A stretch of 64,000 nucleotides of DNA from Dehalococcoidia bacterium. Lineage in GTDB: Bacteria > Chloroflexota > Dehalococcoidia > E44-bin15. Each line of letters opens with the position of its first letter. The stretch's first letter is position 1. Positions 22,935 to 48,693 of this stretch are shown here, one piece after another. Below the pieces are notes generated by a model, which searched no databases, was not told the DNA's origin, and saw only the letters and a list, made by a program, of their open reading frames with translations. The translations under genes were made by a program, and so were the position numbers. The stretch covers positions 66,420-130,419 of the forward strand of contig DATKYK010000024.1 of NCBI GenBank assembly GCA_035528575.1, given 5' to 3'.

Positions 22935-22935
22935 C

Positions 22936-23541: not shown

Positions 23542-23607
23542 CGTGTACTTATTAAAGATCGAAGCCTTATGATTGTACTTAAAAAAGATCGCCAACCTAA
23601 GTGAGCA

Positions 23608-28665: not shown

Positions 28666-29004
28666 GACCGGGTAAACTAGACCCAAAATCCCGCTTCCTG
28701 TTGTAATTAACCACATCTTTGACTATTCCCCACCATATTAAAAGCTCGACAAGCTTAATCCTCGTCTATCTAGTTTTTTCATCTGGAGAATTTGCGCCAT
28801 AGGAATGCTAAAAAGAATCGCATGGCAAACTTAGCCTAGGGTATGGCTCTAAACTGCCAACTCGTGTGTGATTGGAGCAGCGGATTGATGGACTGATATC
28901 TCGATGACTATACTTTTACTACCCATTTACTACTGCCTGCCCTCATCATTGAGCCTAACATCCCTGCGACTCTTTAAACTTCAACCAATGTCATAGAGAT
29001 TAGT

Positions 29005-29553
29005 TTAAAGAGTAAAAGTATCCCATATCCTCCACCTCCCTATAGCAACGGGAAAGGCCAATAGAGTGATAATAATTAAGAAGACACCTCCCTGCCATTT
29101 TTCGTCAAATAGGATTACTGTACCGATAATAGTGAGACAAATGAGTAAAACTAATACTAGCGAACGGTACCTATGGGACGCTTGACTAACAAAAACCAAT
29201 AGAATTACTGCGAACCACGCTAACCCAATCCAGAATAAAGAATGAAATATAATGCCCTCAACTTCTGAAAAGCCTCCTATCCAACTAATAATGAAAGCTA
29301 ATAAGAATATTTCTAATGATATCAGTGATACTCTTGTTCTGTAGCGCCAATTATTTAACCAATTTGCGAAATGATAACACAGAACAGCCGACATGAGGAT
29401 TATTGCAAATGATAATGCAATCCATGCCAACACTATACTGTAAATATCCAGTTCGCCACGTGCCAGTAACGTAGCTCCTATTCCAAACCAGAGGATGCCA
29501 ACTCCTAGTGGACTAAAGCGTTCTCGTTCCTGTTTCGTTAGTTCATCATCCAT
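29005..29553 (-). CDS. Multi-pass membrane protein (about 5-6 transmembrane helices), hypothetical.
   Basis: It consists of hydrophobic helix segments and lies 94 bp downstream of the nuclease-like gene on the same strand. The region is AT-rich. Confidence 0.55.
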   Translation of the reverse strand: MDDELTKQERERFSPLGVGILWFGIGATLLARGELDIYSIVLAWIALSFAIILMSAVLCYHFANWLNNWRYRTRVSLISLEIFLLAFIISWIGGFSEVEGIIFHSLFWIGLAWFAVILLVFVSQASHRYRSLVLVLLICLTIIGTVILFDEKWQGGVFLIIITLLAFPVAIGRWRIWDTFTL

Positions 29554-29646
29554 TTCATAAACACCAACGCCATAATTTATTAATTCTAATCTTTATAGTT
29601 CGAGCTTATCATAGTAACGGTCAATACTTCGGTTGTTCTAGTGGCG

Positions 29647-30249
29647 TTATTTATTATGAGGTTGCATAGATTGTCTTACTAGCTCATCGACAGTCTGGGC
29701 ACCTTTAGGTATCACTATCCAATCATTAAGGTGTTTGGGATATGCATGATCTGATTTTGGATACGCTACTTGGAAGTTTCCACCGTAGTAATTTGCTCCT
29801 GTAAATTGCCATTCTAATTTCTCAAGTTCTTTAATACTATTTAAGAAGGATTTACTTGATTTAACGTCAATTAACCAGACTGGTGTTCGATTTTCCTTAC
29901 TGGGATACAGTATAAGAAAATCCGCATTCACTTGAGGAGCTACACGCTTGCCATCTACTATAAGCAACCTCGGAACAACTTCAAAAATTGGTACAATTTC
30001 CAAATCGATGGGGCCTTCCTGTGGCATTTCCATCCATCCCTGTAGAACAAACCAAGTGCCCTGTCTATATAAGCAAACCTGCTTTATTACACAGTAATAA
30101 AATAAGGCCTCATAAAACACACCATTCAGTCTCGGGAAGTGCTGCTTCAAATTGGGATTATTTACTATCTCGTTCCAGCGCTTTCGTAGTTCGCTGTAGA
30201 TATTATCACCCTTACCATTTTGTACTAGCTGGTTAGACCAGTCTACCAA
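29647..30249 (-). CDS. Hypothetical protein with a putative PD-(D/E)xK nuclease-like core (ADFLIL ... LIDVKSSK).
   Basis: The ORF is in the AT-rich island. The motif assignment is tentative. Confidence 0.45.
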   Translation of the reverse strand: MVDWSNQLVQNGKGDNIYSELRKRWNEIVNNPNLKQHFPRLNGVFYEALFYYCVIKQVCLYRQGTWFVLQGWMEMPQEGPIDLEIVPIFEVVPRLLIVDGKRVAPQVNADFLILYPSKENRTPVWLIDVKSSKSFLNSIKELEKLEWQFTGANYYGGNFQVAYPKSDHAYPKHLNDWIVIPKGAQTVDELVRQSMQPHNK

Positions 30250-30627
30250 CTCAAATTAATGTTTAATATAACCGAATAGCATTACCTTCAAGTAGTTATA
30301 ACAATCCCAGAACTTCCCTAAGCCTGATTTTGGCATTCTCTTATCATTCGCAAATTCCCACATGATCTTCACTAATCGTCTATATAACTTGAAATCGGGA
30401 TTTCTCTGGGACTATTATAGCACTCTACAAATAGAATCATAATTTAATAGGCCTCGAAGTTCGTATTAGGTTTTGCAATTAGCTAGGCTAACCACGTCAC
30501 GCAGGCTACCCGATAATGGGTGGCCCCTTCTCTTTTAACCACAGCATTGACAGCCAAAGCTATAAGAAGTATTATCACACCCGCAAGCAACGCTCAATGT
30601 TGATAAACTCTAAAAGGAGTTAATTGG

Positions 30628-31512
30628 ATGCCACTGTTTAACATTGACCAGGGAAAAGCCAAAACTATTCAGACGAAGGAATTTTCTAACGAAGCAGAAC
30701 TTCAAACACTATTCGATAAGAATCTAGAAGAGATTACAGGTGTTCGTCTGATAGCGAGCCAATTCCCCATTCCCAATGGGCGTATAGATAGTTTGGGTAT
30801 AGATGAGCACAATGTTCCCGTCGTAATTGAATACAAGTGGGGTCACGACCCTGGAGCGATAATACAAGGTTTATTCTATCTACAGTGGCTAACACAAAAC
30901 CGCAAAACATACGAGCTATTGGCAAAAGAGAAATTTGGACCTATAAAAGTCAACTGGTCCTCTGCGCCAAGGCTATTGATAATAGCAAAGAGTTATGACA
31001 TTAAAGAGTTGTCTGCAACTGATATGGTATTACCTTCAGTAGAACTTATGAGGTATTCTTTCTATGGGAATCTCCTCAGCATTGAAGATGTTACAGTACC
31101 TAGAAAAATAAAGCTCCCCAAAGGGGCAGAACCACCAAAAGAAGAGGTAGTAGAGAAAACTATTGAGGATATTATCGAGAAAGCTTCGCCCGAATTGAAA
31201 GGTATATTTTATGAGTTACGCAATAGAATCTTGGAACTTGGCGATGAAGTCCGTGAAAAAGTCGGTGGTTGGTACATTGATTATCGAAAAACCTCTACAT
31301 TCGCTACGATATTACCTCAGTCTAAGAATAATCGACTTGTTATTTACATCAAAATGGGCGATAAGAGAATTGGAGACCCTAAAAGATGGTCATCACAGAT
31401 CCCTACAAGTTGGAGATATGGCAAATTAAATACTCAATTTAATATTATCCAGGAAGACCAGCTCAACTATGCGATGCAATTAATACGACAAGCATACGAA
31501 TATGTCCCCTAG
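30628..31512 (+). CDS. DUF91/NucS-like PD-(D/E)xK nuclease-domain protein with a C-terminal domain of unknown function.
   Basis: The motif GRIDSLGIDEHNVPVVIEYKWG...QGLFYLQW matches the GRIDLLxxDxxGxxVVIElK..Q..Y signature of NucS/DUF91 RecB-like nuclease domains. Confidence 0.6.
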   Translation: MPLFNIDQGKAKTIQTKEFSNEAELQTLFDKNLEEITGVRLIASQFPIPNGRIDSLGIDEHNVPVVIEYKWGHDPGAIIQGLFYLQWLTQNRKTYELLAKEKFGPIKVNWSSAPRLLIIAKSYDIKELSATDMVLPSVELMRYSFYGNLLSIEDVTVPRKIKLPKGAEPPKEEVVEKTIEDIIEKASPELKGIFYELRNRILELGDEVREKVGGWYIDYRKTSTFATILPQSKNNRLVIYIKMGDKRIGDPKRWSSQIPTSWRYGKLNTQFNIIQEDQLNYAMQLIRQAYEYVP

Positions 31513-31662
31513 TGTAATACCCCCATAAAAATGGTGTACTTCAGATACATAGTTACTATTAGACCAAATTTCACCCCAATGGCGCCCTGTAAAACCTCAA
31601 GCTATCCTCAAATGTAACCGACCTGGCATATCGCTGCACCATCTCCAGGCCTTAAACACGAT

Positions 31663-32106
31663 TTATCCCAACTTCTCTCTATAATGCGTAAGGCAATCCT
31701 CAAAGCTTATAGATGCCGTGTATCTCTGCACCATCTGTAGGGATTCCCAACCACCAAGCCTTGCTAAACCTTTTCTATGAAGTCTACAGGCAAAGCCCCT
31801 TCTGAAGCTGTGAGGGTTATAACGAATCCCTGTTTTATCTTCGAGCCTGCGGAGGAGCATTTTAATCACTCGTTAGTAAACAAACTTACCATTTCCTAGC
31901 TGAGGTCGACTTAAGAATTGGTTAATACCTTCGGGGTTTAAACTGTAGCTGTAAGCGAAATTAGTGAGGCAATACTCATAAAGCTGTTTGGTGCTTTGTC
32001 TTAGTTGTGATTCCTTTGAGCAGAGGAATTTGTTAACAATTTCTGTTAACAGTGGATAACTATTTTGTATTTGATTTCTGGAGCGGGTGATGGGATTCGA
32101 ACCCAC
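31663..32106 (-). pseudogene. Decayed tyrosine recombinase/integrase. A 77-aa N-terminal piece and a 68-aa catalytic C-terminal piece are separated by a stop. The N-terminus reads through the tRNA-derived att repeat.
   Basis: The C-terminal piece has HSFRRGFA...LGGW...VQRYT (H/R/Y catalytic residues). The total length is far short of a full integrase. A GTG start lies inside the 46-bp repeat. Confidence 0.6.
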
Positions 32107-32123
32107 GACCCCTTGCTTGGGAA
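32078..32123. repeat. 46-bp direct repeat identical to the 3' portion of tRNA-Gly at 38202-38247 (att-type integration scar).
   Basis: An exact match of ctggagcgggtgatgggattcgaacccacgaccccttgcttgggaa was seen by eye. The sequence diverges immediately afterwards. Confidence 0.8.
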
Positions 32124-32377
32124 TTACCGGGGGCAGTTCACAAACGTAGATTGAGGAAAAATCCCCGTTTCAATACCCTGCCTTGGTGTCTCTCTGGCTC
32201 CTATATACTGACTAGTCAATGAGTCACCACCAAGACCCTCGACTAAGGATATTCTATGACTTAACGGCATTTTACACAATATGTGTGATGTCTGTGTGAT
32301 GTAAACCCGCATCACCCCTCCACCCTTTCCACCACCTCTTGTGTCCTGCGTAGCCAGTAGGATAGCTTACCGCGGCC

Positions 32378-33124
32378 CTAGTATAGTAATTCGACCCTGC
32401 GGAATGCCTCTGCTACTGGAACCCCTTGGTTTTGCCCTATCTTTGAATCCCTCTCCTCGATTCGCTGCTTTAACATCTCGGCATGTTGGCCTATCTGACT
32501 GACGTGGCAGCTAAGAGCAGCCAGCTTGATAGAGAAGGTTTCGCCGATGTCGATAAAGGTATCAGGCTCCTCCGAACCCCAGAAGTAGATCTCACTTACC
32601 CTGTGCGGTGTCAGCCCCTCAGCTATATGCTCTGGATAGGATAGGTGATCGCGGGCGTAGGGGAAGATGGCATCCATTGTGACAGTCCCGGTAATACGAT
32701 GGTCCCGGTGCCACCAGTATTTACGGTAGGGGTCAGTTGTTAGCACGACATCGGGACGATGCTTTCTAATTAGTCGCACCATTTCCCCTCGAAAAGCGGG
32801 GGTATCTTCCAAACCTCCATCAGGGTAGCCGAGAAATATAACTTCGCTTACACCTAGTATTTTGGCGGCTTCCATCTGCTCCTGCTGCCTGATTTTAGCC
32901 AGGGTCTCCGAGGTCATATTTGGATCTGAGCTCCCTTTGTCGCCGTTGGTGCAGACGACATAGAATACCTCTCGCCCTTGCTTAACCCAGGAGGCTATGG
33001 TTCCCCCAGCACCGATCTCTGCGTCATCGGGATGAGGGCTGACTACCATCACTTTGATCACCGATACTTCCATTGAGGAACTTCCTCCCCAGACGTTCTT
33101 CCGGATTGTATCACAGCAATCCAT
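32378..33124 (-). CDS. LmbE/PIG-L family N-acetylglucosaminyl deacetylase (MshB/BshB-like).
   Basis: It has the VVSPHPDDAEIGAGGT zinc-binding signature. Confidence 0.8.
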   Translation of the reverse strand: MDCCDTIRKNVWGGSSSMEVSVIKVMVVSPHPDDAEIGAGGTIASWVKQGREVFYVVCTNGDKGSSDPNMTSETLAKIRQQEQMEAAKILGVSEVIFLGYPDGGLEDTPAFRGEMVRLIRKHRPDVVLTTDPYRKYWWHRDHRITGTVTMDAIFPYARDHLSYPEHIAEGLTPHRVSEIYFWGSEEPDTFIDIGETFSIKLAALSCHVSQIGQHAEMLKQRIEERDSKIGQNQGVPVAEAFRRVELLY

Positions 33125-33171
33125 AAGCTACAATGAAACAGACTACTGTTTGAACCGATAAAGGCAGATAA

Positions 33172-34080
33172 TTGTTTACTATCCGCAACTTCCATACCCA
33201 TGACCTAATCCCCTATGTTCAGCTAGTCAACGAGATAGATGAGGTAGATGGGTTAGGTAAATCTACCTCTGTGGCACAATTCAAGCAGCGCCTGGAGCAA
33301 CCGGGGTATAACTGGGATGAGGACTTGATTCTCGCAGAAATAGATAGCCTTATAGTTGGCTATGCCGATATGGTGCGTGAACTGGAAATCGGCAGGGTAA
33401 TCCTCGACATTGCCGTTAGATCGACATACCGTGGTCGGGGGATAGGCAGCAGGCTACTAGAAAGTGATATAGATCATGGCCGCAAGCTGGGGGCGAAGGT
33501 TATCCATATCCCTATAGCTCAAGGGGTGCAGCCTGGTGAGCACTTCGTTCGAAAAAGAGGCTTTCGAGTGACGCGTCGTCACTGGCAGATGAGCCTAACC
33601 GAATATGGAGTAGGAGCGCTCCAGATTCCAAGCGGCTTCGAGCTTCGCCACTTCCGCCCTGGTGATGAGGAAAGCCTGTGCTTGCTTCAGAACCGCGTAT
33701 TCACAGGTAGCTGGGGATTTCGCCCTAATACAGTAGAAGAGATCCGTTACCTTGTAAACACAGGTTGGTGTCGTCCTGATGGTATCCTGTTTATCTGTGA
33801 GGGCCAAAGCAAGGTGGGCTATTGCTGGATGATGGATCACCCTATCGATAAGAAAAAGGGATACATACGAATGATGGGTATCAATCCCATTTATCGAGAT
33901 CAAGGGTTGGGTAAAGCGATACTAGTGGCTGGAATCAAGCATCTTAAGAAATGCGGAAAGAAGGAGCTAGAGCTTCTGGTGGATAGCAGGAACCAAAGCG
34001 CCAAGCGCCTTTACCAGTCTGTGGGATTCCAAAAAAAGGGGGTAACGCTATGGTATCAAAGGAACCTTTGTGGTTATTAG
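33172..34080 (+). CDS. Tandem-GNAT N-acetyltransferase (MshD-like architecture).
   Basis: Two acetyl-CoA-binding GNAT cores are present (RGRGIGSRLL and RDQGLGKAIL), and the protein is about 300 aa. Confidence 0.7.
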   Translation: MFTIRNFHTHDLIPYVQLVNEIDEVDGLGKSTSVAQFKQRLEQPGYNWDEDLILAEIDSLIVGYADMVRELEIGRVILDIAVRSTYRGRGIGSRLLESDIDHGRKLGAKVIHIPIAQGVQPGEHFVRKRGFRVTRRHWQMSLTEYGVGALQIPSGFELRHFRPGDEESLCLLQNRVFTGSWGFRPNTVEEIRYLVNTGWCRPDGILFICEGQSKVGYCWMMDHPIDKKKGYIRMMGINPIYRDQGLGKAILVAGIKHLKKCGKKELELLVDSRNQSAKRLYQSVGFQKKGVTLWYQRNLCGY

Positions 34081-35268
34081 CTCTTCATAGACGCCGAGAA
34101 CCTGACGTGCCACTATAGACCAAGCATAATCAATTACTGACGGGCGTGCCGCATTTCCCATCCGCCGCCTGAGCTCTTTGTCGCCCAGTAGCCATTCCAA
34201 GCGCTGGGCAAAGACCTCACTCGAGAACTCGTCAATGAGATATCCTGCCTCCCCATCCTTGATAATTGTCGCCAGGCCACCCACTCTCGGGGCTACCACC
34301 GGTGTGCCGCAAGCCAAAGCCTCAACAGCCACTAGACTAAAGCTCTCATAATATGAGGCAATAACGCAGGCATGGGCAGCATTGTAAAATATTGGCATTT
34401 TTTCATGCTCCACCGCACCCCAAAAGATAACCCTTCCTTCAATTCCCAGCTTACTGGCCAGGGAACGCAGACGCACCAATTCGCCATCGCTATCTGAATC
34501 TCCTCCCACGATGAGAAAACGCAGGTCTTTATTGTCCTCAAGGCGTGCCATGGCACGTAGAAGGGTATCGATTCCCTTGAAGGGCTCGATCCTGCCCACG
34601 TAAAGTAGGATATTGGAGTGTTCTGAAAGACCCAGCTCGCATAGCACCTTTTCTTTATCCATGGGTTGAAAAAGCCCAAGGTCAACTCCACAAGGGATGA
34701 CCTTGACATTGTCAGGCTGTGCGCCATAGATAGATATCAGGTTATCCTTCTCATCGGGGCTAACGGCGATTATACAGTCTGCTGTCGCTATTGCCTTTCT
34801 TTCCGCTTTGATGCGCAGCTCTGGCTCCATTTCAGCAGGCCGAGCCCGATTCTTAACTTCCCCTAACGTATGGAATGTGGCAACGTGCGGTATCATGAGT
34901 TGAGCCTGGAGTTGCTCCGCCGCCAACGCCGAGAGCCAGTAGTGACTGTGCAACAGGTCGTATACTAAACCTTCGCTCTCTATATAACGGATGAGATTCA
35001 TGGAGAACTGGGGAAGAATATTATAGATATCCGTCTTCAATATATCCTCCTGCTCACCAGCCGCTATATGGATGAGACGAGCCTTCTCGCCTATCTCCAC
35101 CACCTCAGACTCACTGTCGTCATGCCAGCGGGTGAATATATCCACCTCCACTCCCAGCCTCCCCAGTTCCTGGCTGAGCTCTCGTATGTAAAGGTGCATA
35201 CCTCCAGTATCCTTGCCTCCCAAAGGCCTCAGCGGGCAGCGGTTAACACATATCTTTGCGATTCGCAT
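34048..35268 (-). CDS. GT4-family glycosyltransferase (MshA/BshA-like).
   Basis: It has the GT-B fold with an EX7E-like C-terminal motif and is 406 aa. Confidence 0.8.
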   Translation of the reverse strand: MRIAKICVNRCPLRPLGGKDTGGMHLYIRELSQELGRLGVEVDIFTRWHDDSESEVVEIGEKARLIHIAAGEQEDILKTDIYNILPQFSMNLIRYIESEGLVYDLLHSHYWLSALAAEQLQAQLMIPHVATFHTLGEVKNRARPAEMEPELRIKAERKAIATADCIIAVSPDEKDNLISIYGAQPDNVKVIPCGVDLGLFQPMDKEKVLCELGLSEHSNILLYVGRIEPFKGIDTLLRAMARLEDNKDLRFLIVGGDSDSDGELVRLRSLASKLGIEGRVIFWGAVEHEKMPIFYNAAHACVIASYYESFSLVAVEALACGTPVVAPRVGGLATIIKDGEAGYLIDEFSSEVFAQRLEWLLGDKELRRRMGNAARPSVIDYAWSIVARQVLGVYEELITTKVPLIP

Positions 35269-35272
35269 AGAG

Positions 35273-36253
35273 TCAGCCCCTCGAAATCAAACAGCGATAT
35301 AAAGGCACATCCTGGCCACCGAGGTCATATTTATAGGGCTCGGCACCCCGGAGAAAATCGAAGCGCTTCTTTCCCTCAGAGATGCCCTCTTTGATACAGA
35401 ATACTTTGACTATCAAGCCCACGCTATAGGAAGCATAGTCTCGATTGTACCCACTGTTATATAGATAAAGCTCATTCTCATAGTCGAAGCATAGTGCAGA
35501 GGCCACTGGAATCCCTCCTAACTCGAGGAAGGACAATCTGATGTGGCCTTCCTCTGATAAAGAGTGTGCCATTGTTTCAAAGAAGCCCCTCCTCTGGTCG
35601 GACATGAACCCCGCCTTAGCATCTCCGCTTATTTTAAACAACTCAAAGAAACCCTCCAAAGCCTGGCGCAGCTGCTCTTGTTTAAGGATAGTATAGAAAC
35701 GGGCCGACTTCGCTCGTTCGAGGCGCCGCAGCTTGCGTCTGAGCTCGTGGCGATCTTTCCTCTCCAGCTGAGATAGGTACTTCTCCCAGCTTGAAGGAAG
35801 GAAAACCTGAGGGCTGACATCTTCCTTCGTCACCTCGACCAGATAGTTCCTCTGTTTCGCCAGGAAGGCAAAATAGCGCAGGGCGAGTGAGTTGGGAAGC
35901 AATGACCGGAGATCGATAACGTTCCAATTCATGGGTTCAAGATAATCCAAGAGCTGCGAAAAAACGGTGTCTTCCTCATCTCGTCGAACTATGAAATCCA
36001 TGTAGTCGCAAACATCACTACTGCCGATGAAGGATATATTCTCACCATGGCGCATCAAGGGAACGATACCAATAAGCTCTGTATCCCGCTTCACCGAGAG
36101 GAGCAATAGTTCGCTCCCGTTGCCAAAGGCCTGCCACCATGCCCTCTGCCATTGGGGTATTAGAAAGATATGATTTGTGGCGCAAGCCGCCAGAAGCTCG
36201 CGCCACGTCTTTTCCAAATCGGTGAAACTCTCCAGCACAATGGAATAGCCCAT
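35273..36253 (-). CDS. FemAB-like / BioF2-like (Acetyltransf_6) acyltransferase.
   Basis: It has a FemAB-type GNAT-fold layout. It is translationally adjacent to the GT4 gene. Confidence 0.55.
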   Translation of the reverse strand: MGYSIVLESFTDLEKTWRELLAACATNHIFLIPQWQRAWWQAFGNGSELLLLSVKRDTELIGIVPLMRHGENISFIGSSDVCDYMDFIVRRDEEDTVFSQLLDYLEPMNWNVIDLRSLLPNSLALRYFAFLAKQRNYLVEVTKEDVSPQVFLPSSWEKYLSQLERKDRHELRRKLRRLERAKSARFYTILKQEQLRQALEGFFELFKISGDAKAGFMSDQRRGFFETMAHSLSEEGHIRLSFLELGGIPVASALCFDYENELYLYNSGYNRDYASYSVGLIVKVFCIKEGISEGKKRFDFLRGAEPYKYDLGGQDVPLYRCLISRG

Positions 36254-36361
36254 CGCCCTTCGAGTATAGCATCTCTACACTTTTATGCCAATTAGCTTTT
36301 TGACAGTATGGCCTTTGTGTCTTATAGTTACACTGTCGGCTATGACGACTTGGGCAGTGAA

Positions 36362-37000
36362 ATGAGCTGGCAGTACAACGGAGAAGTTCGAATCAAGAAG
36401 CTGGAGATCCAACCCTTCGGCACGAATTGCTACATTGTGGTTTGCCCTATAAGTGGGGAGGCTGTGATCATAGATACCCCAGGAGAGGCTTCTAGGATTC
36501 TAGCCCAAACGAAGGACATGCGGGTAACATACGTAATAATTACACATACCCATCCCGATCACTTAGGAGCTTTTAGCGAGGTGAGGGATAAGCTCAAGGC
36601 CCCTATAGCCATTCACCCTTTAGAAGCAGCAGTTCTTCCTGCACCACCTGACCTCACCTTGGATGATAGCGATGTTGTGAACTTCGGCATGGTGAGCTTA
36701 AAGGTGCTGCATACCCCTGGCCATTCAGCGGGCAGCCTGTGCCTGCTCACTGGGAAGCACCTCTTCTCCGGTGATACCCTTTTCCCTGGGGGCCCGGGTA
36801 AGACGGGGACACCCGCAGCCTTTGAGCAGATCGTTAATTCGATCACTGAAAAACTCTTTACCCTACCCGATGATACACTGGTCTATCCCGGCCATGGCGA
36901 AGATACCATCCTGGGTAAGGAAAAACAAGAATTTGCCGTTTTTTCAAGCCGCGCCCCAACTGCAGGGCTCTGTGGTGATGTGCTATGGCTTTCTTCCTGA
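36362..37000 (+). CDS. MBL-fold hydrolase, glyoxalase-II-like (HxHxDH).
   Basis: It has ITHTHPDH and HTPGHS motifs and is about 213 aa from the chosen internal ATG. The ORF is open from 36308. Confidence 0.75.
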   Translation: MSWQYNGEVRIKKLEIQPFGTNCYIVVCPISGEAVIIDTPGEASRILAQTKDMRVTYVIITHTHPDHLGAFSEVRDKLKAPIAIHPLEAAVLPAPPDLTLDDSDVVNFGMVSLKVLHTPGHSAGSLCLLTGKHLFSGDTLFPGGPGKTGTPAAFEQIVNSITEKLFTLPDDTLVYPGHGEDTILGKEKQEFAVFSSRAPTAGLCGDVLWLSS

Positions 37001-37202
37001 CCAATAAGCCTATTAGGTTTATCGTGGCGGGCCTTTATGGGGATAGCGCCGACACAACCAGATCATGCACCCCAAATAGCGTAGGCGGTTAAAACCTCTC
37101 GCTATTATTTCTACCCTTTAATATAATGGGACACGGTTGCACAATTGCAACCAATGAAGCTGTCACATATCCTAACTAATGTAGCGAGAAAAGGAGGTAT
37201 CA

Positions 37203-37730
37203 ATGGAATGGTACGATCTGCTGGCTGACGGTTATGGGCGTGTGCTCGAGTTCCTCGAGAATGTGCTTGACGGACTTAATAAGGACGAATTGAACTGGCA
37301 GCCCCACCAGGATTGCAATAGCATTGGCTGGTTGACTTGGCATCTGACGCGTCAGCATGATGCCCAAATGGCTTCTTTGATGGGGAAGGAGCAATTGTGG
37401 ATCGAGGAGAAATGGTACGCCAAGTTCAATCGATCAGCTGACCTTCAGGATATTGGATTCGGTCACACACCGGGGCAGGTGGCAGCGTTTGAATCTCCCG
37501 ATATTCAGACGCTACTTGACTACCATCGCGCGGTACTAGAACGCTCAAAACAGTACTTCCTTACTCTATCAATAACTGACCTTGACCAAAAGATTGATGA
37601 ACCGTGGTTTCAGCCGTTACCCACGGTTGGCGTCCGTCTAATCAGCATCTTAGAAGATAGTCTACTACATGCGGGCCAAGCGGCTTATGTCCGCGGACTA
37701 CGCCAAGGCAAAGGATGGCAAAAGTACTGA
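37203..37730 (+). CDS. DinB/YfiT-family (DinB_2) protein, a putative thiol-dependent transferase.
   Basis: It has the W..HLxxH signature of DinB_2. An AGGAGG Shine-Dalgarno site precedes the start. Confidence 0.7.
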   Translation: MEWYDLLADGYGRVLEFLENVLDGLNKDELNWQPHQDCNSIGWLTWHLTRQHDAQMASLMGKEQLWIEEKWYAKFNRSADLQDIGFGHTPGQVAAFESPDIQTLLDYHRAVLERSKQYFLTLSITDLDQKIDEPWFQPLPTVGVRLISILEDSLLHAGQAAYVRGLRQGKGWQKY

Positions 37731-38191: not shown

Positions 38192-38202
38192 GTTTTACTA
38201 GC

Positions 38203-38277
38203 TGGAGCGGGTGATGGGATTCGAACCCACGACCCCTTGCTTGGGAAGCAAGTACTCTACCGCTGAGTTACACCCGC
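38203..38277 (-). tRNA. tRNA-Gly (anticodon CCC) with genome-encoded CCA.
   Basis: The reverse complement folds as a cloverleaf with acceptor GCGGGTG/CACCCGC, anticodon loop TTCCCAA and T-arm GGTTCGAATCC. Confidence 0.85.
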
Positions 38278-38656: not shown

Positions 38657-39427
38657 CTAGTACTCTTTCTGCACCTCTTTAACGTTCAGCTTCATGTCAA
38701 ACTGAAAGTAGAGACCAGCCAATACCTCATCAATCTTGAGTTTGTGGACAGGATCAGACAGAGAGGGTGAGTCATAAGTAATAGATGCCGGGCCAATCCA
38801 TACCGCTTTCTCCCCCTTGGGATCCTTGTGGAAGTCCACCTCCGCATACCAGCTTATCAACTGCGTAAGATGCGTTAGACCCCCGCTAGGATTCTTCACA
38901 AAAGGAACATGTCTGACGGACAGTAAGGGGATTGGATACGGGATGTACGCATCTACTACACTGCCACCTGCCCGCTCTACTGGCTTGAAGGTAAAGGTGA
39001 TCAGCCTTTTACCTGATGGCCGCTCCAGGGTTCCCTGTATAAGGTCATATTCATTCTCAAGACTTATATCCGCCATCTTCTTGGGCGCTCCCGCCCACTC
39101 CCTTCCGGCGGCCATAGCAGCGTCATTGGTCACATAGATATAGGGGATGTAGTATCCCATTTCTCCATGTACGTCTCTTACTATGATCATCGAAATGTGC
39201 TCATTGTATGTTCCTACAGTGCTGAAAGGGTACCTGGATATCCATATCGCGCCTTGGGGAGGATCACTGTATGGCTCAAGCCCCTCCGGCAGAATATCAT
39301 CCACCTTTCCATCGATCAGAAAAACGGCAGCTAGCGCCTCGCAATTTCTGTACTCAATACCTCTCTCGGGGTTCAAATCATAGAGTGGAGCATCGAAAGG
39401 GGTGGACACACCTATTTTTAAAACCAT
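38657..39427 (-). CDS. Acetoacetate-decarboxylase-like (ADC family) protein.
   Basis: It matches ADC-fold family length and layout at 256 aa. The call is by recognition only. Confidence 0.55.
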   Translation of the reverse strand: MVLKIGVSTPFDAPLYDLNPERGIEYRNCEALAAVFLIDGKVDDILPEGLEPYSDPPQGAIWISRYPFSTVGTYNEHISMIIVRDVHGEMGYYIPYIYVTNDAAMAAGREWAGAPKKMADISLENEYDLIQGTLERPSGKRLITFTFKPVERAGGSVVDAYIPYPIPLLSVRHVPFVKNPSGGLTHLTQLISWYAEVDFHKDPKGEKAVWIGPASITYDSPSLSDPVHKLKIDEVLAGLYFQFDMKLNVKEVQKEY

Positions 39428-39480
39428 CTTGATATACCTCCTTGTTTATTGGGTTATCCCATGTGAGAACATATGAGGGA

Positions 39481-40752
39481 TTAACTCTTATACTCATCGA
39501 CAATGTTATATGCAGCTGCAATGCTTAAGATATCGTTGGCTCCATCCATTATTAATGAAGCCCGCGCATCCCTGAAGAGCTTTTCGATGAGAAAGTCCTT
39601 GGTGAGACCGTATCCTCCGTGGAGCTGCAAAGCTTCATGAGCCACCTCGAAGGCTGCATTTGTGCCATATATTTGTGCGGAAAGAGCATGTCGGGAAGAA
39701 GCATCAAATGTTTTCTCGATATAGATCTTGCTCCAGACGTGCTCCATTACCTTTCTCGTGTAGTACCTAGAGCTCTCGACCATTTCGAACATCCGGTAGA
39801 GCTTTTGCTTGACCGATTGGTGCTCGCATAGCGGTTTGCCGCCCTGAACCCTGTCCTTGGAGTACTTCAGTGCCTCCTCGAAGGCAGCCCGGGCTAGGCC
39901 GGTAAATGCTGCCGCCATGAAACAGCTCGTTACGCAGATTATCTGGCCTACGCGGTATTCATAGAAGGGGGGCCTGATGATCATGTAGTCATCCGGAATA
40001 TGCACATTATCAAAAGCGAGATCTCCTTGTGGAGAGTCCCTCAGCCCAAGCTTGTCGATAGGTTTCCCCTTGGTCACACCCTCTTGATCAAGCGAGACAA
40101 TGCAAAACGCCCCATTGGAAAGACAATCATGAGGCGGCAGGGTAACGTGGAGACCTACATGTGTCGCTGCAGGGGCTGAAGATATCCAGCTTGATTTGGG
40201 CCCGTTTATGATCCACCCATCGCCATCTTTCACAGCTCTAACTTGGCCGGGATGAAGCTCTCTTACATGAGGAAGAAAGCTTTCTTCACAAAGAAAGATG
40301 TAATCTGAGCCACACTCGGGCTCGGTCATACCCCAGCAGCTGTGGTATTCGGCTTCTGTATCTTCTACAAAGGGCTTCACCACTTTTTCAATTACATCTC
40401 CCATGCCAAATATCGAAGCCACTCCAGGCGGGACCTGATCCACGCCTATCGCCGTTGTCAGCCCCACACTTCCCCAGCCGAGCTCTTCCAGAATTATATG
40501 AGCTTCCGTTGCACTCAATCCCAGACCACCGTAGTCCGGGTCTATGAAGATCTTGTGATACCCCAACCTCTTCATCTGTTTTAAGACATCCCAATATGGT
40601 GAGTCTTCTTCTATCACCTTGGCCGGGTCGGACATACTATCTAATGCCGCCGCAGCAGGCCTCATTACCTCTTCAGCGAATCTATGTGTTTCCCGTCTTA
40701 GTAATGACAACCCCTTGTCCTCTGTGATTAGGGGGTCTATTTCAAAGTACAT
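39481..40752 (-). CDS. Acyl-CoA dehydrogenase family protein.
   Basis: It has the ACAD three-domain layout, with a C-terminal helical domain and the ALQLHGGYG motif. Confidence 0.85.
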   Translation of the reverse strand: MYFEIDPLITEDKGLSLLRRETHRFAEEVMRPAAAALDSMSDPAKVIEEDSPYWDVLKQMKRLGYHKIFIDPDYGGLGLSATEAHIILEELGWGSVGLTTAIGVDQVPPGVASIFGMGDVIEKVVKPFVEDTEAEYHSCWGMTEPECGSDYIFLCEESFLPHVRELHPGQVRAVKDGDGWIINGPKSSWISSAPAATHVGLHVTLPPHDCLSNGAFCIVSLDQEGVTKGKPIDKLGLRDSPQGDLAFDNVHIPDDYMIIRPPFYEYRVGQIICVTSCFMAAAFTGLARAAFEEALKYSKDRVQGGKPLCEHQSVKQKLYRMFEMVESSRYYTRKVMEHVWSKIYIEKTFDASSRHALSAQIYGTNAAFEVAHEALQLHGGYGLTKDFLIEKLFRDARASLIMDGANDILSIAAAYNIVDEYKS

Positions 40753-40803
40753 GGGGCTCCCTCCTCACGTTCAGAGTAACCTCTCTTCTATCGCTCAGTC
40801 AAA

Positions 40804-41415
40804 TTAGTCGATCGGAACTCCAGCAAGCACCTCTTTGGTTAACGCTACCACCGCTTTCATCCGCTTCATCATGTACTGCATATCGCCTTCGAGCTGCAAG
40901 CGGTTGCTCATTACCAGTCTCATAGTATCCTGCTGCCCTGAAACCAGCAGCTTCCAGGAGCTGTACTTCCCAGAGAGCTTGAAAGCGGCATCCTCGTGCT
41001 CACCCGGAGCCACACCAATCATGTCTCTGATGCTGCCATGCCAGAAATCCGCCCAGAAATACAGGGCCGCATTGCTCAAATCCTCAGCAGATAGCTTTGA
41101 GATTCTTGCCACCAGTTCATTTAGGTCCAACCTTGTGAGGGAAGCATCCAACGATATGCCCAGCTTCTTTTCCATGAAATCGCCCATAGGAGAGCCTTTG
41201 TACTTCTTTCGGCTCTCTTCGGGTATCATATTCAAGAAGCTCATGAAGCCTTCAATTACCTCTTTTCTACTCAGATCCCCCATAAACTCGTCGTCGCACT
41301 CGATGATACACAGGAAGTCACCTTCCCAATCCTTTGACGCTTCTTTGTACTCCTCGCTTCTCTTTGCGAGCTCCAACACCCCCTCTACCCATTCCTTTGA
41401 CGGGAATATAGCCAT
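40804..41415 (-). CDS. Hypothetical protein, possibly SCP2-like lipid-carrier.
   Basis: Similarity is weak. It lies within the acyl-CoA cluster. Confidence 0.4.
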   Translation of the reverse strand: MAIFPSKEWVEGVLELAKRSEEYKEASKDWEGDFLCIIECDDEFMGDLSRKEVIEGFMSFLNMIPEESRKKYKGSPMGDFMEKKLGISLDASLTRLDLNELVARISKLSAEDLSNAALYFWADFWHGSIRDMIGVAPGEHEDAAFKLSGKYSSWKLLVSGQQDTMRLVMSNRLQLEGDMQYMMKRMKAVVALTKEVLAGVPID

Positions 41416-41680
41416 TTCCCTACCTCCAATCTTATGTTTTCTTCCTTATACATAATAATCCCCCTCAGACAACAGAATCAATATTGAATCAGCTATATAT
41501 CCACCGAGACGACCACTCCTTGGTAGTTCATAAACTTAAAAAGCTTGGTTTTATAACGCCTTTGCTGCTTAACTGCACCCATATATTGCACGATGGTCTG
41601 CCCCTTAGCGAAAGCAGAGCGAAAAATTGGCAAACTAGATTGCGAGGAATAGAACGATTATTCTTGATGTGACCGTAATA

Positions 41681-41728
41681 TCACATTACAATCAATTTGT
41701 CAATTAGTTCCATTGACAAGTAATGTGA
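41681..41728. promoter_or_regulatory. Nested imperfect palindrome (TCACATTAC-n7-TTGTCAAT-n7-ATTGACAA-GTAATGTGA), a candidate operator in a divergent promoter region.
   Basis: The inverted repeats were read directly from the sequence. The site is about 100 bp upstream of the acyl-CoA dehydrogenase start at 41828. Confidence 0.4.
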
Positions 41729-41827
41729 AAAGAGCTACGCTACCACACAAGCTAAGCTGAACAAACTTAAATCTATTTTTACAAATGAGAGGATAGAGAG
41801 CAGTATCAACTAAATAAGGGTGAAGAA

Positions 41828-42973
41828 ATGAACCTAGACTTCAGTGAAGAGCAGAAAATGTTTCGGGCTGCGGCAAGAGATTTCCTAGCTAGTGAGTGCC
41901 CCAAGAGTAAGGTTAGAGAGCTTGAGGAAAGTGAGAAGGGACACGATCCAGAACTATGGAGAAAGGTAGCGGACCTGGGATGGATTGGGTTAATCATTCC
42001 TGAACAATATGGGGGTTCTGGATCGGAGTTCACAAGCCTTGTGGTCCTCTTCGAGGAGATAGGAAGGAACATTTTCCCATCTCCTCTTTTTTCTACAGTG
42101 GTTCTTGGTGCTCTGCTCATACTCCAATATGGAAATGAGGAGCAGAAGCAGAAGTTCCTTCCCCGCATAGCTCGTGGAGAGACTATTATGTCCCTGGCTC
42201 TTATTGAATCCTCTGCCAGTTATGAGCCATCGTCGATCAGAGTAAAGGCAGAGCTTCAGGAAGGCGGTTATGTTATCAATGGCATCAAGCTTTTTGTAAA
42301 CGATGCCGGGGTGGCAGATTACCTCTCGGTAGTGGCCAGGACTGCCGAGAAAGCGGACCCCAAGGAAGGGATCACGCTATTCCTAGTGGATGCTGAAAGC
42401 CCTGGGATAAGGATAGAAGTAATGCCCACTATAGCTCGTGATAAGCAATGTGAGGTTTCTTTCAGTGACGTCAGGGTACACCCAGGGGATATCTTGGGAG
42501 AGGAAGGCAGAGGTTGGAAGATAGTAGATAGAATCTTGGAGCAGGCTGCTGTGTTAAAATGCGCCGAGTCGGTGGGTGCGATGGAGGCGGTAGTGGATAT
42601 GACCACCGAATACGCAAAGGAAAGGGTGCAATATGGGAAGGCTATCGCTTCTTTCCAGGTTATTCAGCACTACCTAGCCAACATGACCGCCCGCACCCTT
42701 ACAGCTAAGGGCATGACCTATAGGGCATCCTGGATGGTTCAACAGGGTATGCCATGCACTGTAGAGGTCTCAGCAGCTAAAGCCTGGGCTAATGAGGCAT
42801 ATAAGTTCGTTACCGAAAGGGCAGTGCAAATTCACGGTGCCATTGGAATGACCAGAGACCACGATATAGGGCTTTACTACAGGAGAGCTAAAGCAGCAGA
42901 CGTAATCTTTGGGGATACTGATCTCCACCATGAAAGGGTAGCCCAGCAACTGTGGCCGGGCATTAGACCCTGA
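41828..42973 (+). CDS. Acyl-CoA dehydrogenase.
   Basis: It has ACAD motifs (QIHGAIGMTRD). Confidence 0.85.
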   Translation: MNLDFSEEQKMFRAAARDFLASECPKSKVRELEESEKGHDPELWRKVADLGWIGLIIPEQYGGSGSEFTSLVVLFEEIGRNIFPSPLFSTVVLGALLILQYGNEEQKQKFLPRIARGETIMSLALIESSASYEPSSIRVKAELQEGGYVINGIKLFVNDAGVADYLSVVARTAEKADPKEGITLFLVDAESPGIRIEVMPTIARDKQCEVSFSDVRVHPGDILGEEGRGWKIVDRILEQAAVLKCAESVGAMEAVVDMTTEYAKERVQYGKAIASFQVIQHYLANMTARTLTAKGMTYRASWMVQQGMPCTVEVSAAKAWANEAYKFVTERAVQIHGAIGMTRDHDIGLYYRRAKAADVIFGDTDLHHERVAQQLWPGIRP

Positions 42974-43249
42974 TGGTAAAATATAGCCGAAATTCTAAAG
43001 CAGGATGAGCAGGTTCAGCATTCTGTCTTTACCCCAAGCGATCACCCGTATGAGGGGAACTCGACGGTTTGGATTCAGGATTAATAAAAAGTTAGGGTAG
43101 TGTGATGCAGGTCTAATTTGGAGGTGGAGAAAGAAGCTCAAATGCCGTTTGTGCCAGCAGTATGTGATTACAACCCACAGACTGTTCCGCGCTGGCAGTG
43201 CAGTATTTAACCTATCTCATGAGTCTTTGTTAGATTTAGCTGAAAGGGA

Positions 43250-44590: not shown

Positions 44591-44637
44591 ATAGGGCTGT
44601 TAGTAATGCAGGCACCCTTGAGATTCACCACTGATTT

Positions 44638-44853
44638 TTGTTTTCTACTGAGCGCGATATGGTTGTTGAGATTAACCATCCCACGTTGGGCAAAGTGAAG
44701 CAAGTGGGAATCCCTATAAAGTTGTCGGAGACGCCCGGAGCCATAAGACGGCCGCCTCCTCACCGCGGTGAACACACCGAGGAAATCCTTTTGGAGCTCG
44801 GCTACAACAGGCAAGCAATTGATAAACTTAGGTCAAGTGAAGCTATAAAATAG
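44638..44853 (+). pseudogene. C-terminal remnant (about 70 aa) of a third family-III CoA-transferase paralog.
   Basis: It aligns to the C-termini of the two downstream CaiB-like genes (GKVK.VGIPIKLSETPG ... LGEHTEEIL). No N-terminal body is present. Confidence 0.6.
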
Positions 44854-44877
44854 ATCGCTTTGGAAAGGGATTAGAAC

Positions 44878-46080: not shown

Positions 46081-46090
46081 GCGGAAAGCA

Positions 46091-47269: not shown

Positions 47270-47285
47270 TCAAGGAGGTTAAAGG

Positions 47286-48497: not shown

Positions 48498-48530
48498 CCA
48501 GGAATGGGATATGCTGTTCTAGCCTTTCGC

Positions 48531-48693
48531 CCTCGCTAGTGAGTGCCCCAAGAGTAAGGTTAGAGAGCTTGAGGAAACTGAGAAGGGAAATGTCCCATGA
48601 CTATAAAGGACGATAGCGGACCTGGAATGGATAGGGTTAATCCTTCCTTAACAATATGGGAGTTCTAAAGCGGAGTTCACAAGAATTGCACGG
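48531..48693 (+). pseudogene. Degenerate roughly 165-bp copy of the 5' end of the acyl-CoA dehydrogenase gene at 41888-42040.
   Basis: Nucleotide similarity (ctagtgagtgccccaagagtaaggttagagagcttgaggaaa...) was seen by eye, with indels. Confidence 0.55.

Follow-up and report, generated by a model that had tools for sequence, protein, structure and literature searches.

The stretch of DNA analysed here (the window, 64 kb in all) comes from an uncultured anaerobic Dehalococcoidia bacterium and holds six neighbouring genes that the first-pass annotation had likened to a low-molecular-weight thiol cluster. All six are intact open reading frames at the coordinates originally given, and Pfam and NCBIfam searches returned the domains that had been named for them, with PIG-L, GT4 (MshA), Acetyltransf_6, Lactamase_B and DinB_2 each matching the expected frame (Table 1). 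Hydropathy analysis detected no membrane-like segments in any of the six proteins. In the NCBIfam scan the mycothiol equivalog models scored below their curated cutoffs, MST being the sole exception. No credible gene was found at 32124-32377.

Table 1. Genes and other features of the locus, numbered from the first nucleotide of the window
Feature	Position	Strand	Supporting match
Degraded tyrosine-recombinase (integrase) gene, two ORF fragments	31663..32106	-	PF00589 1.9e-7
Exact 46-nt copy of tRNA-Gly 3' part (anticodon loop to CCA)	32078..32123	-	
PIG-L/LmbE family GlcNAc-conjugate de-N-acetylase, 231 aa	32378..33073	-	PF02585 1.1e-36
Tandem-GNAT acetyltransferase, MshD-like, 302 aa	33172..34080	+	TIGR03448 106 bits
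GT4 retaining glycosyltransferase, MshA-like, 406 aa	34048..35268	-	TIGR03449 350.8 bits
Fem-like double-GNAT transferase, Acetyltransf_6 family, 326 aa	35273..36253	-	Acetyltransf_6 3.9e-32
Candidate divergent control region, Fem-like/GT4 unit vs MBL/DinB unit	36254..36361	.	sigma-70-like matches
MBL-fold hydrolase, glyoxalase II / ETHE1 group, 230 aa ORF	36308..37000	+	Lactamase_B 4.8e-25
DinB-superfamily thiol S-transferase, MST (Rv0443)-like, 175 aa	37203..37730	+	NF047843 181.3 bits
tRNA-Gly(CCC), intact, one boundary of repeat-bracketed segment	38203..38277	-	ARAGORN; Rfam 71.4 bits

The LmbE reading frame extends to 33124, and the start MEVSV is favoured by homologues and by gene callers on identical contigs; the MBL protein probably starts at 36362, giving 212 aa. 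Within the control region the best sigma-70-like matches are TTGACA-17-TATAGT (11/12) on the forward strand and TTGGCA-17-TATACT (10/12, with TG) on the reverse strand, both pointing outwards. Because the total of such matches does not exceed shuffled expectation, divergent promoters between the two units are only suggested.

The tRNA-bracketed segment

The genes had been placed inside a tRNA-flanked island. ARAGORN and Rfam both identified tRNA-Gly(CCC) as the sole tRNA gene, and a 46-nt exact direct repeat links it to the opposite border (32078-32123 = 38202-38247, 6124 nt apart). Shuffled sequence gave an expectation of zero such matches, and no third copy occurs in the window. Thus, the six genes are indeed bracketed, with a tRNA gene on one side and a fragment of one on the other, not with two tRNA genes. 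Immediately outside the repeat lies the integrase remnant, whose Phage_integrase match covers a 68-aa fragment, and bordering this remnant is a low-GC segment (0.39-0.42; ~28.7-32.0 kb). The tRNA-Gly gene and the copy of its 3' end, beside a decayed integrase, constitute the footprint of site-specific integration. The island is thus upheld as a structure. GC within the segment is, however, host-like (0.49-0.50), no integrase was found inside it, and both the integrase remnant and the low-GC DNA lie just outside, so that recent horizontal acquisition is possible but not established.

Relationships of the encoded proteins

The GT4 gene starts 4 nt past the stop codon of the Fem-like gene. Its product matched MshA (E 9e-105, under the 462.5-bit cutoff) far better than any other NCBIfam family, the next scoring 164 bits and BshA 113 bits. 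Among solved structures Corynebacterium glutamicum MshA was closest over the full length (3c48/3c4q, 1.6e-77), followed by sucrose-phosphate synthase (6kih, 1.9e-68), and soluble MshA outscored PimA by 264 to 64 bits. An E-x7-E motif is readable in the sequence, and MshA residues K78, Y110, H133, T134 and R154, which we take to be functionally important, are all kept in the alignment. The protein therefore groups with MshA and sucrose-phosphate synthase, which both take sugar-phosphate acceptors, and not with cell-wall or LPS glycosylation enzymes. By homology it would transfer GlcNAc from UDP-GlcNAc to inositol-phosphate, yielding GlcNAc-inositol-phosphate; sucrose-phosphate synthase is scarcely more distant from it than MshA, so a different sugar phosphate or a polyol phosphate may be the acceptor.

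The LmbE protein carries readable metal motifs (HPDD and HRDH) and scored 119 bits against BshB1 and 58.6 bits against MshB, both under cutoff. Its family membership suggests that it would convert GlcNAc-inositol to GlcN-inositol. The closest solved relative is an archaeal diacetylchitobiose deacetylase (5.5e-41), with BshB1 (2e-20) and MshB (2e-11) further away; this greater proximity to the chitobiose enzyme than to MshB counts against a mycothiol-type reading.

The FemAB-like/BioF2-like protein noted earlier beside the GT4 belongs to Acetyltransf_6, and NCBIfam FemAB_like scored just below threshold (26.4 bits vs cutoff 27). Its predicted structure (pLDDT 93) has as nearest folds the aminoacyl-tRNA-dependent transferases FemA/FemX, MprF and Sbb17, the last of which aminoacylates an amino sugar, in line with the relatives first proposed for it. 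An Arg/Lys-rich helix (residues 165-180) and a Tyr307-Lys308 pair close to the C-terminus are invariant among homologues and agree with features given for Fem-type enzymes (PMC12945691). At the sequence level no match to any solved Fem enzyme was found. The likeness in fold consists mainly of the double-GNAT architecture. The only Acetyltransf_6 protein that NCBIfam names, BspF, carries the annotation of an acyl-CoA (crotonyl) transferase. We infer that the Fem-like protein may transfer an aminoacyl group, probably cysteinyl, from aminoacyl-tRNA to the GlcN amine in place of MshC, on the grounds of its fold, the position of its gene and the missing ligase.

The tandem GNAT comprises two Acetyltransf_1/7 domains and aligns with MshD (TIGR03448) almost end to end, residues 16-293 covering model positions 15-292 of 294 at a score below the 163-bit cutoff. 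Its structural matches were 3tt2 (Sphaerobacter GNAT, 1.6e-10) and MshD (2c27/1ozp, 1.4e-8), and the acetyl-CoA motif R/Q-x-x-G-x-G/A is present in both halves (residues 87 and 242), consistent with a role in N-acetylating the added amino acid with acetyl-CoA. The MBL protein, in which THTHPDH is readable, has GloB as its best NCBIfam family (TIGR03413, 88 bits, cutoff 200.8) and matches YcbL/GloB (2xf4, 1.5e-24) and ETHE1-type structures (4ysb, 4chl); it may hydrolyse thioesters or persulfides of the thiol. The DinB protein (DinB_2/MST) exceeds the 170-bit cutoff of the 'mycothiol transferase' model and is nearest to Mycobacterium tuberculosis mycothiol-S-transferase (8f5v/8fx9, 2e-31), with the His/Asp/His positions kept in the alignment. 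Together with the GT4, this match bears out the assignment of the set to enzyme classes of mycothiol and bacillithiol metabolism.

Gene neighbourhoods in related genomes

Among related loci with enough sequence available, 55 of 58 have a GT4 gene no more than 500 nt from the Fem-like gene, and 27 of 36 have an LmbE gene within 8 kb of it. The carriers range over Dehalococcoidia, SAR202, Desulfobacterota, Bacillota, Poribacteria and Pseudomonadota MAGs. The genes are syntenic across several phyla, and those flanking the cluster vary from genome to genome; the grouping is far beyond chance. Besides these three genes only the tandem GNAT (21/58 loci) and the MBL gene (adjoining the cluster in 15 loci) recur broadly. 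Linkage of the DinB gene was seen only in this locus and, distantly, in one other (L014). That MST and MBL join the cluster in a minority of loci only counts against the explanation preferred below.

Several relatives add further genes. An inositol-3-phosphate synthase, Ino1 (TIGR03450 'mycothiol_INO1', 533 bits, below the curated cutoff), and a PHP phosphatase adjoin the cluster in three loci (L047, L012 and L010); Ino1 is also found next to the cluster in L049 and in L060, a Bacillota MAG, making five loci only, and is not in this window. GlmU-like and GlmS genes lie downstream of LmbE in five loci, the GT4 gene of L041 is followed by a HAD phosphatase, and in a Poribacteria locus (L034) a protein of the TIGR03084/MDMPI_N family of mycothiol-dependent enzymes is encoded between the Fem-like gene and the tandem GNAT. 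The additions of Ino1, phosphatase and GlmU/GlmS suggest a GlcN-inositol scaffold.

As first reported, the window contains no MshC- or BshC-like gene, the ORFs of suitable size encoding other enzymes, and neighbour clustering with Pfam scans of selected ORFs revealed no recurrent CysRS-, MshC- or BshC-like gene in ~70 related loci. The clusters of 6 of 7 Desulfobacterota-type loci encode a ~417-aa protein joining peptidase S51 to a CysRS C-terminal anticodon-binding domain (PF23493, 2.6e-10; TIGR00435 positions 362-464), which was found neither in the window nor in any Dehalococcoidia locus. Where present this protein could itself handle cysteine, in which case the Fem-like protein might have another role. 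With Ino1, phosphatase and GlmU/GlmS, these CysRS-domain neighbours strengthen the case for the glucosamine-based thiol originally suggested as plausible.

A proposed pathway and its alternatives

The reading we prefer, held with about as much confidence as doubt, is that the cluster encodes a mycothiol-type low-molecular-weight thiol pathway on glucosaminyl-inositol with tRNA-dependent cysteinylation; product and aminoacyl donor are inferred rather than shown. According to the model, the MshA-like GT4 would join GlcNAc to inositol-phosphate, and a phosphatase, of which none is encoded in this window and a PHP or HAD type stands beside the cluster in relatives, would remove the phosphate. LmbE would then take off the acetyl group to expose the 2-amine, which the Fem-like protein would acylate from aminoacyl-tRNA, most likely Cys-tRNA(Cys), replacing the ATP-dependent CysRS paralogue MshC. 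The MshD-like GNAT would acetylate the new alpha-amine, and the glyoxalase-II-type hydrolase and MST-like transferase would use the thiol. If true, this would amount to a novel route to a redox cofactor, with a Fem relative substituting for the usual cysteine-joining enzyme, in an anaerobic host; mycothiol itself is an antioxidant thiol.

A mycothiol- or bacillithiol-like thiol might instead be completed by an ATP-dependent cysteine ligase encoded elsewhere, leaving the Fem-like enzyme to make some other decoration, such as adding a second or a non-cysteine amino acid. The sequence read, 64 kb of this genome and at most 21 kb of each related one, leaves room for such a gene, the msh genes of actinobacteria are scattered, and the Desulfobacterota CysRS-domain protein could be a cysteine-specific component. 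We nevertheless consider this unlikely: the Fem-like gene is the most constant neighbour of the GT4, no MshC-like gene was found in the window and none recurs in ~70 loci from several phyla, and the only new nucleophile that LmbE would create is the GlcN amine, of the type that Fem enzymes acylate.

Equally unlikely, in our view, is a product that is not a thiol: a glucosaminyl-inositol bearing an N-acyl or N-aminoacyl group, or a related sugar-phosphate conjugate, which would act either as a compatible solute or, in a GPI-like or MprF-like modified lipid, as the head group. The Fem-like enzyme would then use acyl-CoA or a non-cysteine aminoacyl-tRNA. The solubility of all six proteins by hydropathy and the closer match of the GT4 to soluble MshA than to PimA speak against this, and three independent thiol-dependent families (MST, GloB/ETHE1-type MBL and TIGR03084/MDMPI-like) occur with the cluster in different phyla. 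The CysRS anticodon-binding domain points the same way, and an MshD-like tandem GNAT suits N-acetylation of an added amino acid. Ordinary envelope or polysaccharide glycosylation genes, a GT4 and a FemAB peptide-bridge enzyme brought together by chance or operon shuffling, are very improbable. Envelope biosynthesis commonly involves GT4 and Fem-type proteins, and JGI labels homologues 'CelD/BcsL family acetyltransferase involved in cellulose biosynthesis'; however, genes for flippases, polymerases, lipid-carrier transferases or secretion do not recur around the cluster in related loci, the proteins lack membrane-like segments, the best GT4 matches are cytoplasmic enzymes with sugar-phosphate acceptors, and a deacetylase, Ino1, phosphatases and enzymes related to thiols make up the conserved partners.

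The proposed mycothiol-type pathway shares its enzyme classes and chemical order with actinobacterial mycothiol biosynthesis (Ino1, MshA, MshA2, MshB, MshC and MshD; users MST, Mca and MDMPI), including a full-length MshD-like GNAT, an MST homologue above cutoff and, in relatives, Ino1 and a phosphatase. It differs in having a Fem-like double-GNAT protein and no MshC, in MshA, MshB, MshD and Ino1 scores that all fall below curated cutoffs, in an LmbE from a different PIG-L lineage, and in genes that are clustered, not scattered, in anaerobic Dehalococcoidia, Desulfobacterota and other hosts outside the Actinobacteria. Bacillithiol synthesis (BshA, BshB and BshC) likewise combines a GT4, an LmbE (here scoring higher with BshB1 than with MshB) and cysteine addition on a GlcN scaffold, with DinB-family S-transferases and glyoxalase II as thiol users. 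Here, however, MshA far outscores BshA (351 vs 113 bits), BshC is missing, linkage to Ino1 and a phosphatase suggests inositol-phosphate rather than malate as acceptor, and the MshD-like acetyltransferase has no counterpart step.

Solved Fem enzymes, of the FemAB rather than the Acetyltransf_6 family, show no detectable sequence similarity to the Fem-like protein and serve antibiotic or cell-wall synthesis, whereas primary, cofactor-type metabolism is proposed here. MprF and the aminoacyl-phosphatidylglycerol synthases (DUF2156) act on a lipid hydroxyl; the Fem-like protein is soluble, lacks a flippase/membrane domain and has a predicted soluble amino-sugar amine as acceptor. The early steps of GPI-anchor and archaeal GlcN-inositol-lipid synthesis (PIG-A GT4 and PIG-L) also add GlcNAc to an inositol acceptor and then deacetylate it; unlike these, the present GT4 is much nearer to soluble MshA than to the phosphatidylinositol-using PimA, no membrane proteins are involved, and the accessory genes are thiol-related.

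Six-gene cluster and its relatives

The first-pass annotation had described six genes of a thiol-like cluster at 32.1–37.7 kb, a description confirmed by Pfam and NCBIfam, which agree on the domains. All six open reading frames are intact and retain their catalytic motifs; they are listed below together with neighbouring features and with features of related loci in other genomes.

Coordinates of features in the window and in related loci that carry Fem-like relatives (locus numbers prefixed L)
Feature	Position	Strand	Family match or remark
LmbE/PIG-L deacetylase	32378-33073	-	Pfam and NCBIfam domains; gene intact
Tandem GNAT (MshD-like)	33172-34080	+	MshD model TIGR03448 aligned end to end, 106.4 bits (cutoff 163.1)
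GT4 glycosyltransferase (MshA-like)	34048-35268	-	Top family MshA (TIGR03449), 350.8 bits, E 9e-105 (cutoff 462.5)
Acetyltransf_6/FemAB_like protein (Fem-like)	35273-36253	-	Pfam; stop 4 nt ahead of GT4 start
Metallo-beta-lactamase-fold (MBL) hydrolase	36308-37000	+	Top NCBIfam family GloB
DinB protein	37203-37730	+	NCBI 'mycothiol transferase' NF047843, 181.3 bits (above cutoff 170)
Low-GC (0.39-0.42) block of hypothetical genes	28700-32106		Just outside the partial tRNA copy
Genes without family match	29005-29553; 29647-30249		In low-GC block
DUF5655/NucS-like gene	30628-31512		In low-GC block
Tyrosine-recombinase gene, degraded, two fragments	31663-32106		Just outside the partial tRNA copy
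S51/CysS_C protein	L029:151-1455; L067:5769-7022; L070:8001-9251; L071:8001-9269; L072:8001-9260; L073:8001-9254; L074:8001-9290
GFO/IDH/MocA pair	L067:7177-9838; L035:56-1871; L070:9280-11935; L071:9478-12187; L073:9391-12046; L074:9405-12063

In NCBIfam the GT4 protein falls to MshA by a wide margin (the runner-up family scored 164 bits, and BshA 113 bits against a cutoff of 273.7), at a score below the TIGR03449 equivalog cutoff. The LmbE protein reached neither the MshB model TIGR03445 (58.6 bits, cutoff 224) nor BshB1 (119 bits, cutoff 182.5); its nearest solved relative is an archaeal diacetylchitobiose deacetylase and its metal motifs are intact. Judged from its sequence, it is a genuine PIG-L deacetylase and not an MshB orthologue. 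The tandem GNAT, which is below the TIGR03448 cutoff, carries acetyl-CoA motifs in both halves, and this fits an enzyme that would acetylate the amino acid newly put on the sugar. The MBL hydrolase scored 88.3 bits against GloB TIGR03413 (cutoff 200.8), contains the THxHxDH metal motif and has YcbL/GloB and ETHE1-type enzymes as its nearest structures. Translation of this protein probably starts at an internal methionine (36362), giving 212 aa as in its homologues. The best promoter-like match of a scan, TTGACA-17-TATAGT, overlaps the first annotated ATG of the same open reading frame (36308-36362); match counts in the promoter and terminator scan were not above shuffled expectation. The DinB protein matched M. 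tuberculosis MST (8f5v/8fx9) at 2e-31 and keeps the metal-binding His/Asp/His positions, which, together with its score above the equivalog cutoff, places it among the Rv0443-type, mycothiol S-transferase-like proteins of the DinB superfamily.

Relatives of the Fem-like protein were sought in one genome per species, yielding 64 loci, and their neighbouring genes were compared by tblastn and all-against-all clustering. Of the 58 loci with enough sequence, 55 have a GT4 gene no more than 500 nt from the Fem-like gene, and an LmbE gene is found at a distance of up to 8 kb in 27 of 36 loci; neighbour clustering placed the tandem GNAT in 21 loci and the MBL hydrolase in 15. Homologues are therefore syntenic elsewhere, a point on which the first-pass annotation had let its interpretation depend. 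No further family recurs in more than seven of the related loci, and the outer flanking genes are not conserved among them. Carriers are chiefly Dehalococcoidia, including SAR202, with Desulfobacterales and other Deltaproteobacteria, and one metagenome-assembled genome (MAG) each of Bacillota, Poribacteria and Pseudomonadota. The Fem-like family comprises 2430 clusters at 50% identity (E<=1e-30). The organism of the window is anaerobic, uncultured and of Dehalococcoidia type; contigs identical to that of the window were found in several metagenomes, with homologues named Dehalococcoidales or Chloroflexota. The cluster is clearly portable in evolutionary terms.

Proposed cysteine ligation and the Fem-like protein

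During mycothiol synthesis, cysteine is coupled with GlcN-Ins by MshC, a paralogue of CysRS (PMC9437257). Among the open reading frames of the 64-kb window we found no resemblance to MshC, BshC or CysRS, and no MshC-type ligase occurs as a recurrent gene in the approximately 70 related loci, so that the proposed absence of an MshC/BshC-type ligase stands within this range. Compared with the mycothiol pathway, the cluster thus lacks MshC and falls below the cutoffs of the MshA, MshB and MshD models; compared with the bacillithiol pathway, it falls below those of BshA and BshB1 and has no BshC-like open reading frame in the window. Because the MshA, MshB, MshD, BshA and BshB cutoffs were missed and MshC is lacking, we do not class the cluster as the mycothiol pathway itself.

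The tightest position beside GT4 is held by the Fem-like gene. Its product belongs to Pfam family PF13480 (Acetyltransf_6), another member of which carries an acyl-CoA transferase annotation; the Fem-like protein scored 26.4 bits for PF04339 (FemAB_like, cutoff 27) and gave no match to PF02388 (FemAB). Searched by sequence against solved structures, both as a single protein and as a 46-sequence profile, it returned no meaningful match. The AlphaFold model (pLDDT 93.2) predicts two GNAT domains with an intervening substrate cleft, its nearest neighbours in fold being Fem enzymes, and Foldseek returned the same fold ranking (TM-scores 0.57-0.67 versus 0.37-0.54). It is only by comparison of the modelled fold that the protein would be kin to the Fem enzymes.

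Hallmarks of that class are two GNAT domains, a cleft between them for the substrate, a catalytic lysine and, in domain 2, a basic helix that binds tRNA, with K305 of FemX and F328-K329 of DhpH-C as reference positions (PMC12945691). A basic helix at residues 165-180 of the Fem-like protein has R173 and R176 invariant and R168 near-invariant. Near the C-terminus, Y307-K308 is invariant in 58 members that are 35-100% identical, and may correspond to the FemX and DhpH-C positions. The acetyl-CoA motif is absent from both beta4-alpha3 junctions. The helix, the Tyr-Lys pair and the missing acetyl-CoA motif are consistent with tRNA dependence, short of proof.

A further pointer comes from the Desulfobacterota version of the cluster, where a protein of ~417 aa combines a peptidase-S51/cyanophycinase-like domain, in which the Ser/His motif residues are conserved, with a C-terminal region resembling CysRS. 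Its last ~100 residues match the CysRS anticodon-binding end (PF23493 at 2.6e-10, above cutoff; TIGR00435 positions 362-464), and among solved structures the same part matched CysRS of E. coli and of Coxiella (about 3e-4). This S51/CysS_C family is highly conserved and has at least 8000 members, with 65-79% identity among the best matches. The gene sits with Fem-like, GT4 and PIG-L genes in six of the seven carrying loci (L029, L067, L070, L071, L072 and L073). Of the indirect signs that point to cysteine and to tRNA, the strongest is this tRNA(Cys)-recognition module in a ligase-less cluster; neither S51 nor CysS_C domains were found in the window or in any of the Dehalococcoidia loci, and hence its relevance to the window is by analogy. 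The S51/CysS_C protein could itself be a tRNA(Cys)-dependent enzyme, and it, rather than the Fem-like protein, could handle cysteine in the Desulfobacterota carriers. In one Desulfobacterales locus (L067), a seryl-tRNA synthetase gene (L067:3327-4661) lies two genes upstream of the S51/CysS_C gene, which may be a coincidental housekeeping linkage. In the clusters of Desulfobacterota, what comes after the S51/CysS_C gene is always a pair of genes for oxidoreductases of GFO/IDH/MocA, the family of inositol dehydrogenases, and the first of the two also has a ThuA-like domain as a fusion. This pair hints at use of a modified cyclitol or sugar in these clusters.

Proposed sugar scaffold and pathway

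The closest solved structure to GT4 is C. glutamicum MshA (1.6e-77 over the full length), followed by a cyanobacterial sucrose-phosphate synthase (1.9e-68), with BshA and PimA far weaker; MshA and sucrose-phosphate synthase have phosphorylated acceptors in common. In the alignment K78, Y110, H133, T134 and R154 of MshA, which we take to be inositol-phosphate/acceptor-site residues, are identical in GT4. More telling for the scaffold is comparative gene context. Upstream of the cluster in the closest Dehalococcoidales relatives (L047, L012 and L010) are genes for inositol-3-phosphate synthase (Ino1) and a PHP-family phosphatase; this Ino1 scored 533 bits with TIGR03450 'mycothiol_INO1' (cutoff 638). 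Two further loci have Ino1 next to the cluster, namely L049 and, as an independent case, L060 of the Bacillota MAG; it is absent from the 64-kb window. GlmU-like and GlmS genes, for making UDP-GlcNAc, lie downstream of the cluster in five loci, and a HAD phosphatase follows GT4 in L041. Thus genes to supply the donor, genes to supply the acceptor and a candidate phosphatase for the 'MshA2' step, long missing to our knowledge, have each been recruited to the cluster in some lineage.

The pathway that we propose, as the reading with most support, is of the mycothiol type, with the Fem-like transferase replacing MshC and probably using Cys-tRNA(Cys); for this full chain, read from sequence, we put the case for and against at about equal weight. 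Considerably safer is the view that the conserved module of GT4, deacetylase and Fem-like protein would generate an N-acylated or N-aminoacylated GlcN conjugate of an inositol-type acceptor. A broader and more tentative reading includes the Desulfobacterota: a Fem-type transferase would pass cysteine from Cys-tRNA(Cys) to glucosaminyl-inositol, giving a tRNA-dependent mycothiol or close analogue in strict anaerobes (Dehalococcoidia, SAR202, Desulfobacterota and others), with the S51/CysS_C fusion as a dedicated tRNA(Cys)-handling partner in the Desulfobacterota. As far as sequence analysis reaches, the interpretation of the first-pass annotation is supported.

A conventional cysteine ligase could instead be encoded elsewhere in the genome, outside the window in which none was detected, and we judge this unlikely. 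It also seems improbable that the product is a non-thiol conjugate; thiol-dependent enzymes of three kinds join the core and would suggest a thiol, namely the MST-like DinB protein of the window, the glyoxalase-II/ETHE1-type MBL hydrolase (15 loci) and, in the Poribacteria locus, a TIGR03084/MDMPI_N protein. The last belongs to a family whose enzymes depend on mycothiol, and its gene has the Fem-like gene on one side and that of the tandem GNAT on the other. That these are envelope glycosylation genes is highly improbable, and this reading was dropped because no recurrent envelope genes occur near the cluster.

Mycothiol and bacillithiol are lineage-specific substitutes for glutathione. For many anaerobes, among them the marine and the organohalide-respiring Dehalococcoidia and the sulfate reducers of the Desulfobacterota, we are aware of no identified main thiol, and we know of no dedicated low-molecular-weight thiol in the strict anaerobes that carry the cluster. 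A literature search returned no paper combining mycothiol with Dehalococcoidia and none describing this system. If the tRNA-dependent route is correct, its product would be the first redox cofactor known to draw on charged tRNA for its synthesis. If a GlcN-inositol thiol is made, mycothiol-type chemistry would extend far beyond the Actinobacteria, and the cluster would be a source of candidate genes with which poorly cultivable, environmentally important groups buffer their redox state and detoxify electrophiles. An aminoacyl-tRNA synthetase-like ligase would then have been replaced non-orthologously by a user of the synthetase product, charged tRNA, tying translation directly to cofactor supply.

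Repeat-bounded segment and surrounding genes

The first-pass annotation had also placed the cluster in a tRNA-flanked island. The sole tRNA detected by ARAGORN and Rfam is Gly-CCC (38203-38277, minus strand), and an exact 46-nt direct repeat of its 3' part (32078-32123 and 38202-38247) brackets the six genes. A tRNA gene paired with a partial copy of itself is what integration at such a gene classically leaves behind. Between the repeats there is no integrase, and the GC content (0.49-0.50) is like that of the rest of the window, whereas the degraded integrase and the low-GC DNA lie outside the repeats; these points count against a straightforward island, as does the setting of the cluster in related genomes. 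The low-GC block with its recombinase fragments borders the tRNA-Gly fragment and resembles an integrative element that has decayed; a search allowing up to 3 mismatches found no further copy of the repeat that would bound this block. Tandem integration at one tRNA fits the layout, a later segment without integrase having displaced an older element that carried one, and the layout may also have originated by rearrangement. None of 47 related loci has tRNA-Gly beside the cluster, so the tRNA association is specific to the window genome. A second tRNA or other RNA at 32.1–32.4 kb was considered and rejected, Rfam (gathering and E-value thresholds) giving only an 18-nt T-arm match that is part of the tRNA-Gly fragment; a 63-aa open reading frame at 32124-32315 was dismissed as spurious.

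Genes for RACo, MttB-type methyltransferases, 2-oxoacid:ferredoxin oxidoreductases and acyl-CoA metabolism surround the cluster. A set related to oxidative stress and metals (1-5822) encodes a truncated flavodiiron-type protein (ODP and flavodoxin), two rubrerythrin-domain proteins, MsrA and a copper P-type ATPase, and is a relevant setting for an anaerobe possibly having a protective thiol. The corrinoid methyltransferase module at 18529-25542 (pterin-binding and B12-binding proteins, two MttB-family proteins of 478 and 484 aa, DUF1638 and the corrinoid activase RACo) has the usual composition of modules that demethylate methylated amines or betaine and so feed the Wood-Ljungdahl pathway. The acyl-CoA metabolism run (38657-56000) includes an acetoacetate decarboxylase-family protein, three acyl-CoA dehydrogenases, SCP2, thiolases, two family-III CoA-transferases, a ChsH2-like OB-fold protein and methylmalonyl-CoA mutase. 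Between metabolic operons lies a 533-aa protein (48913-50514, minus strand) with an odd combination of an ST7-like region and a plasmid pRiA4b ORF-3-like domain. Another GT4, not related to that of the cluster (60846-61952), adjoins a glycogen-debranching/mannosylglycerate-hydrolase-like protein (58481-60679), and the pair may belong to compatible-solute or glycogen metabolism.
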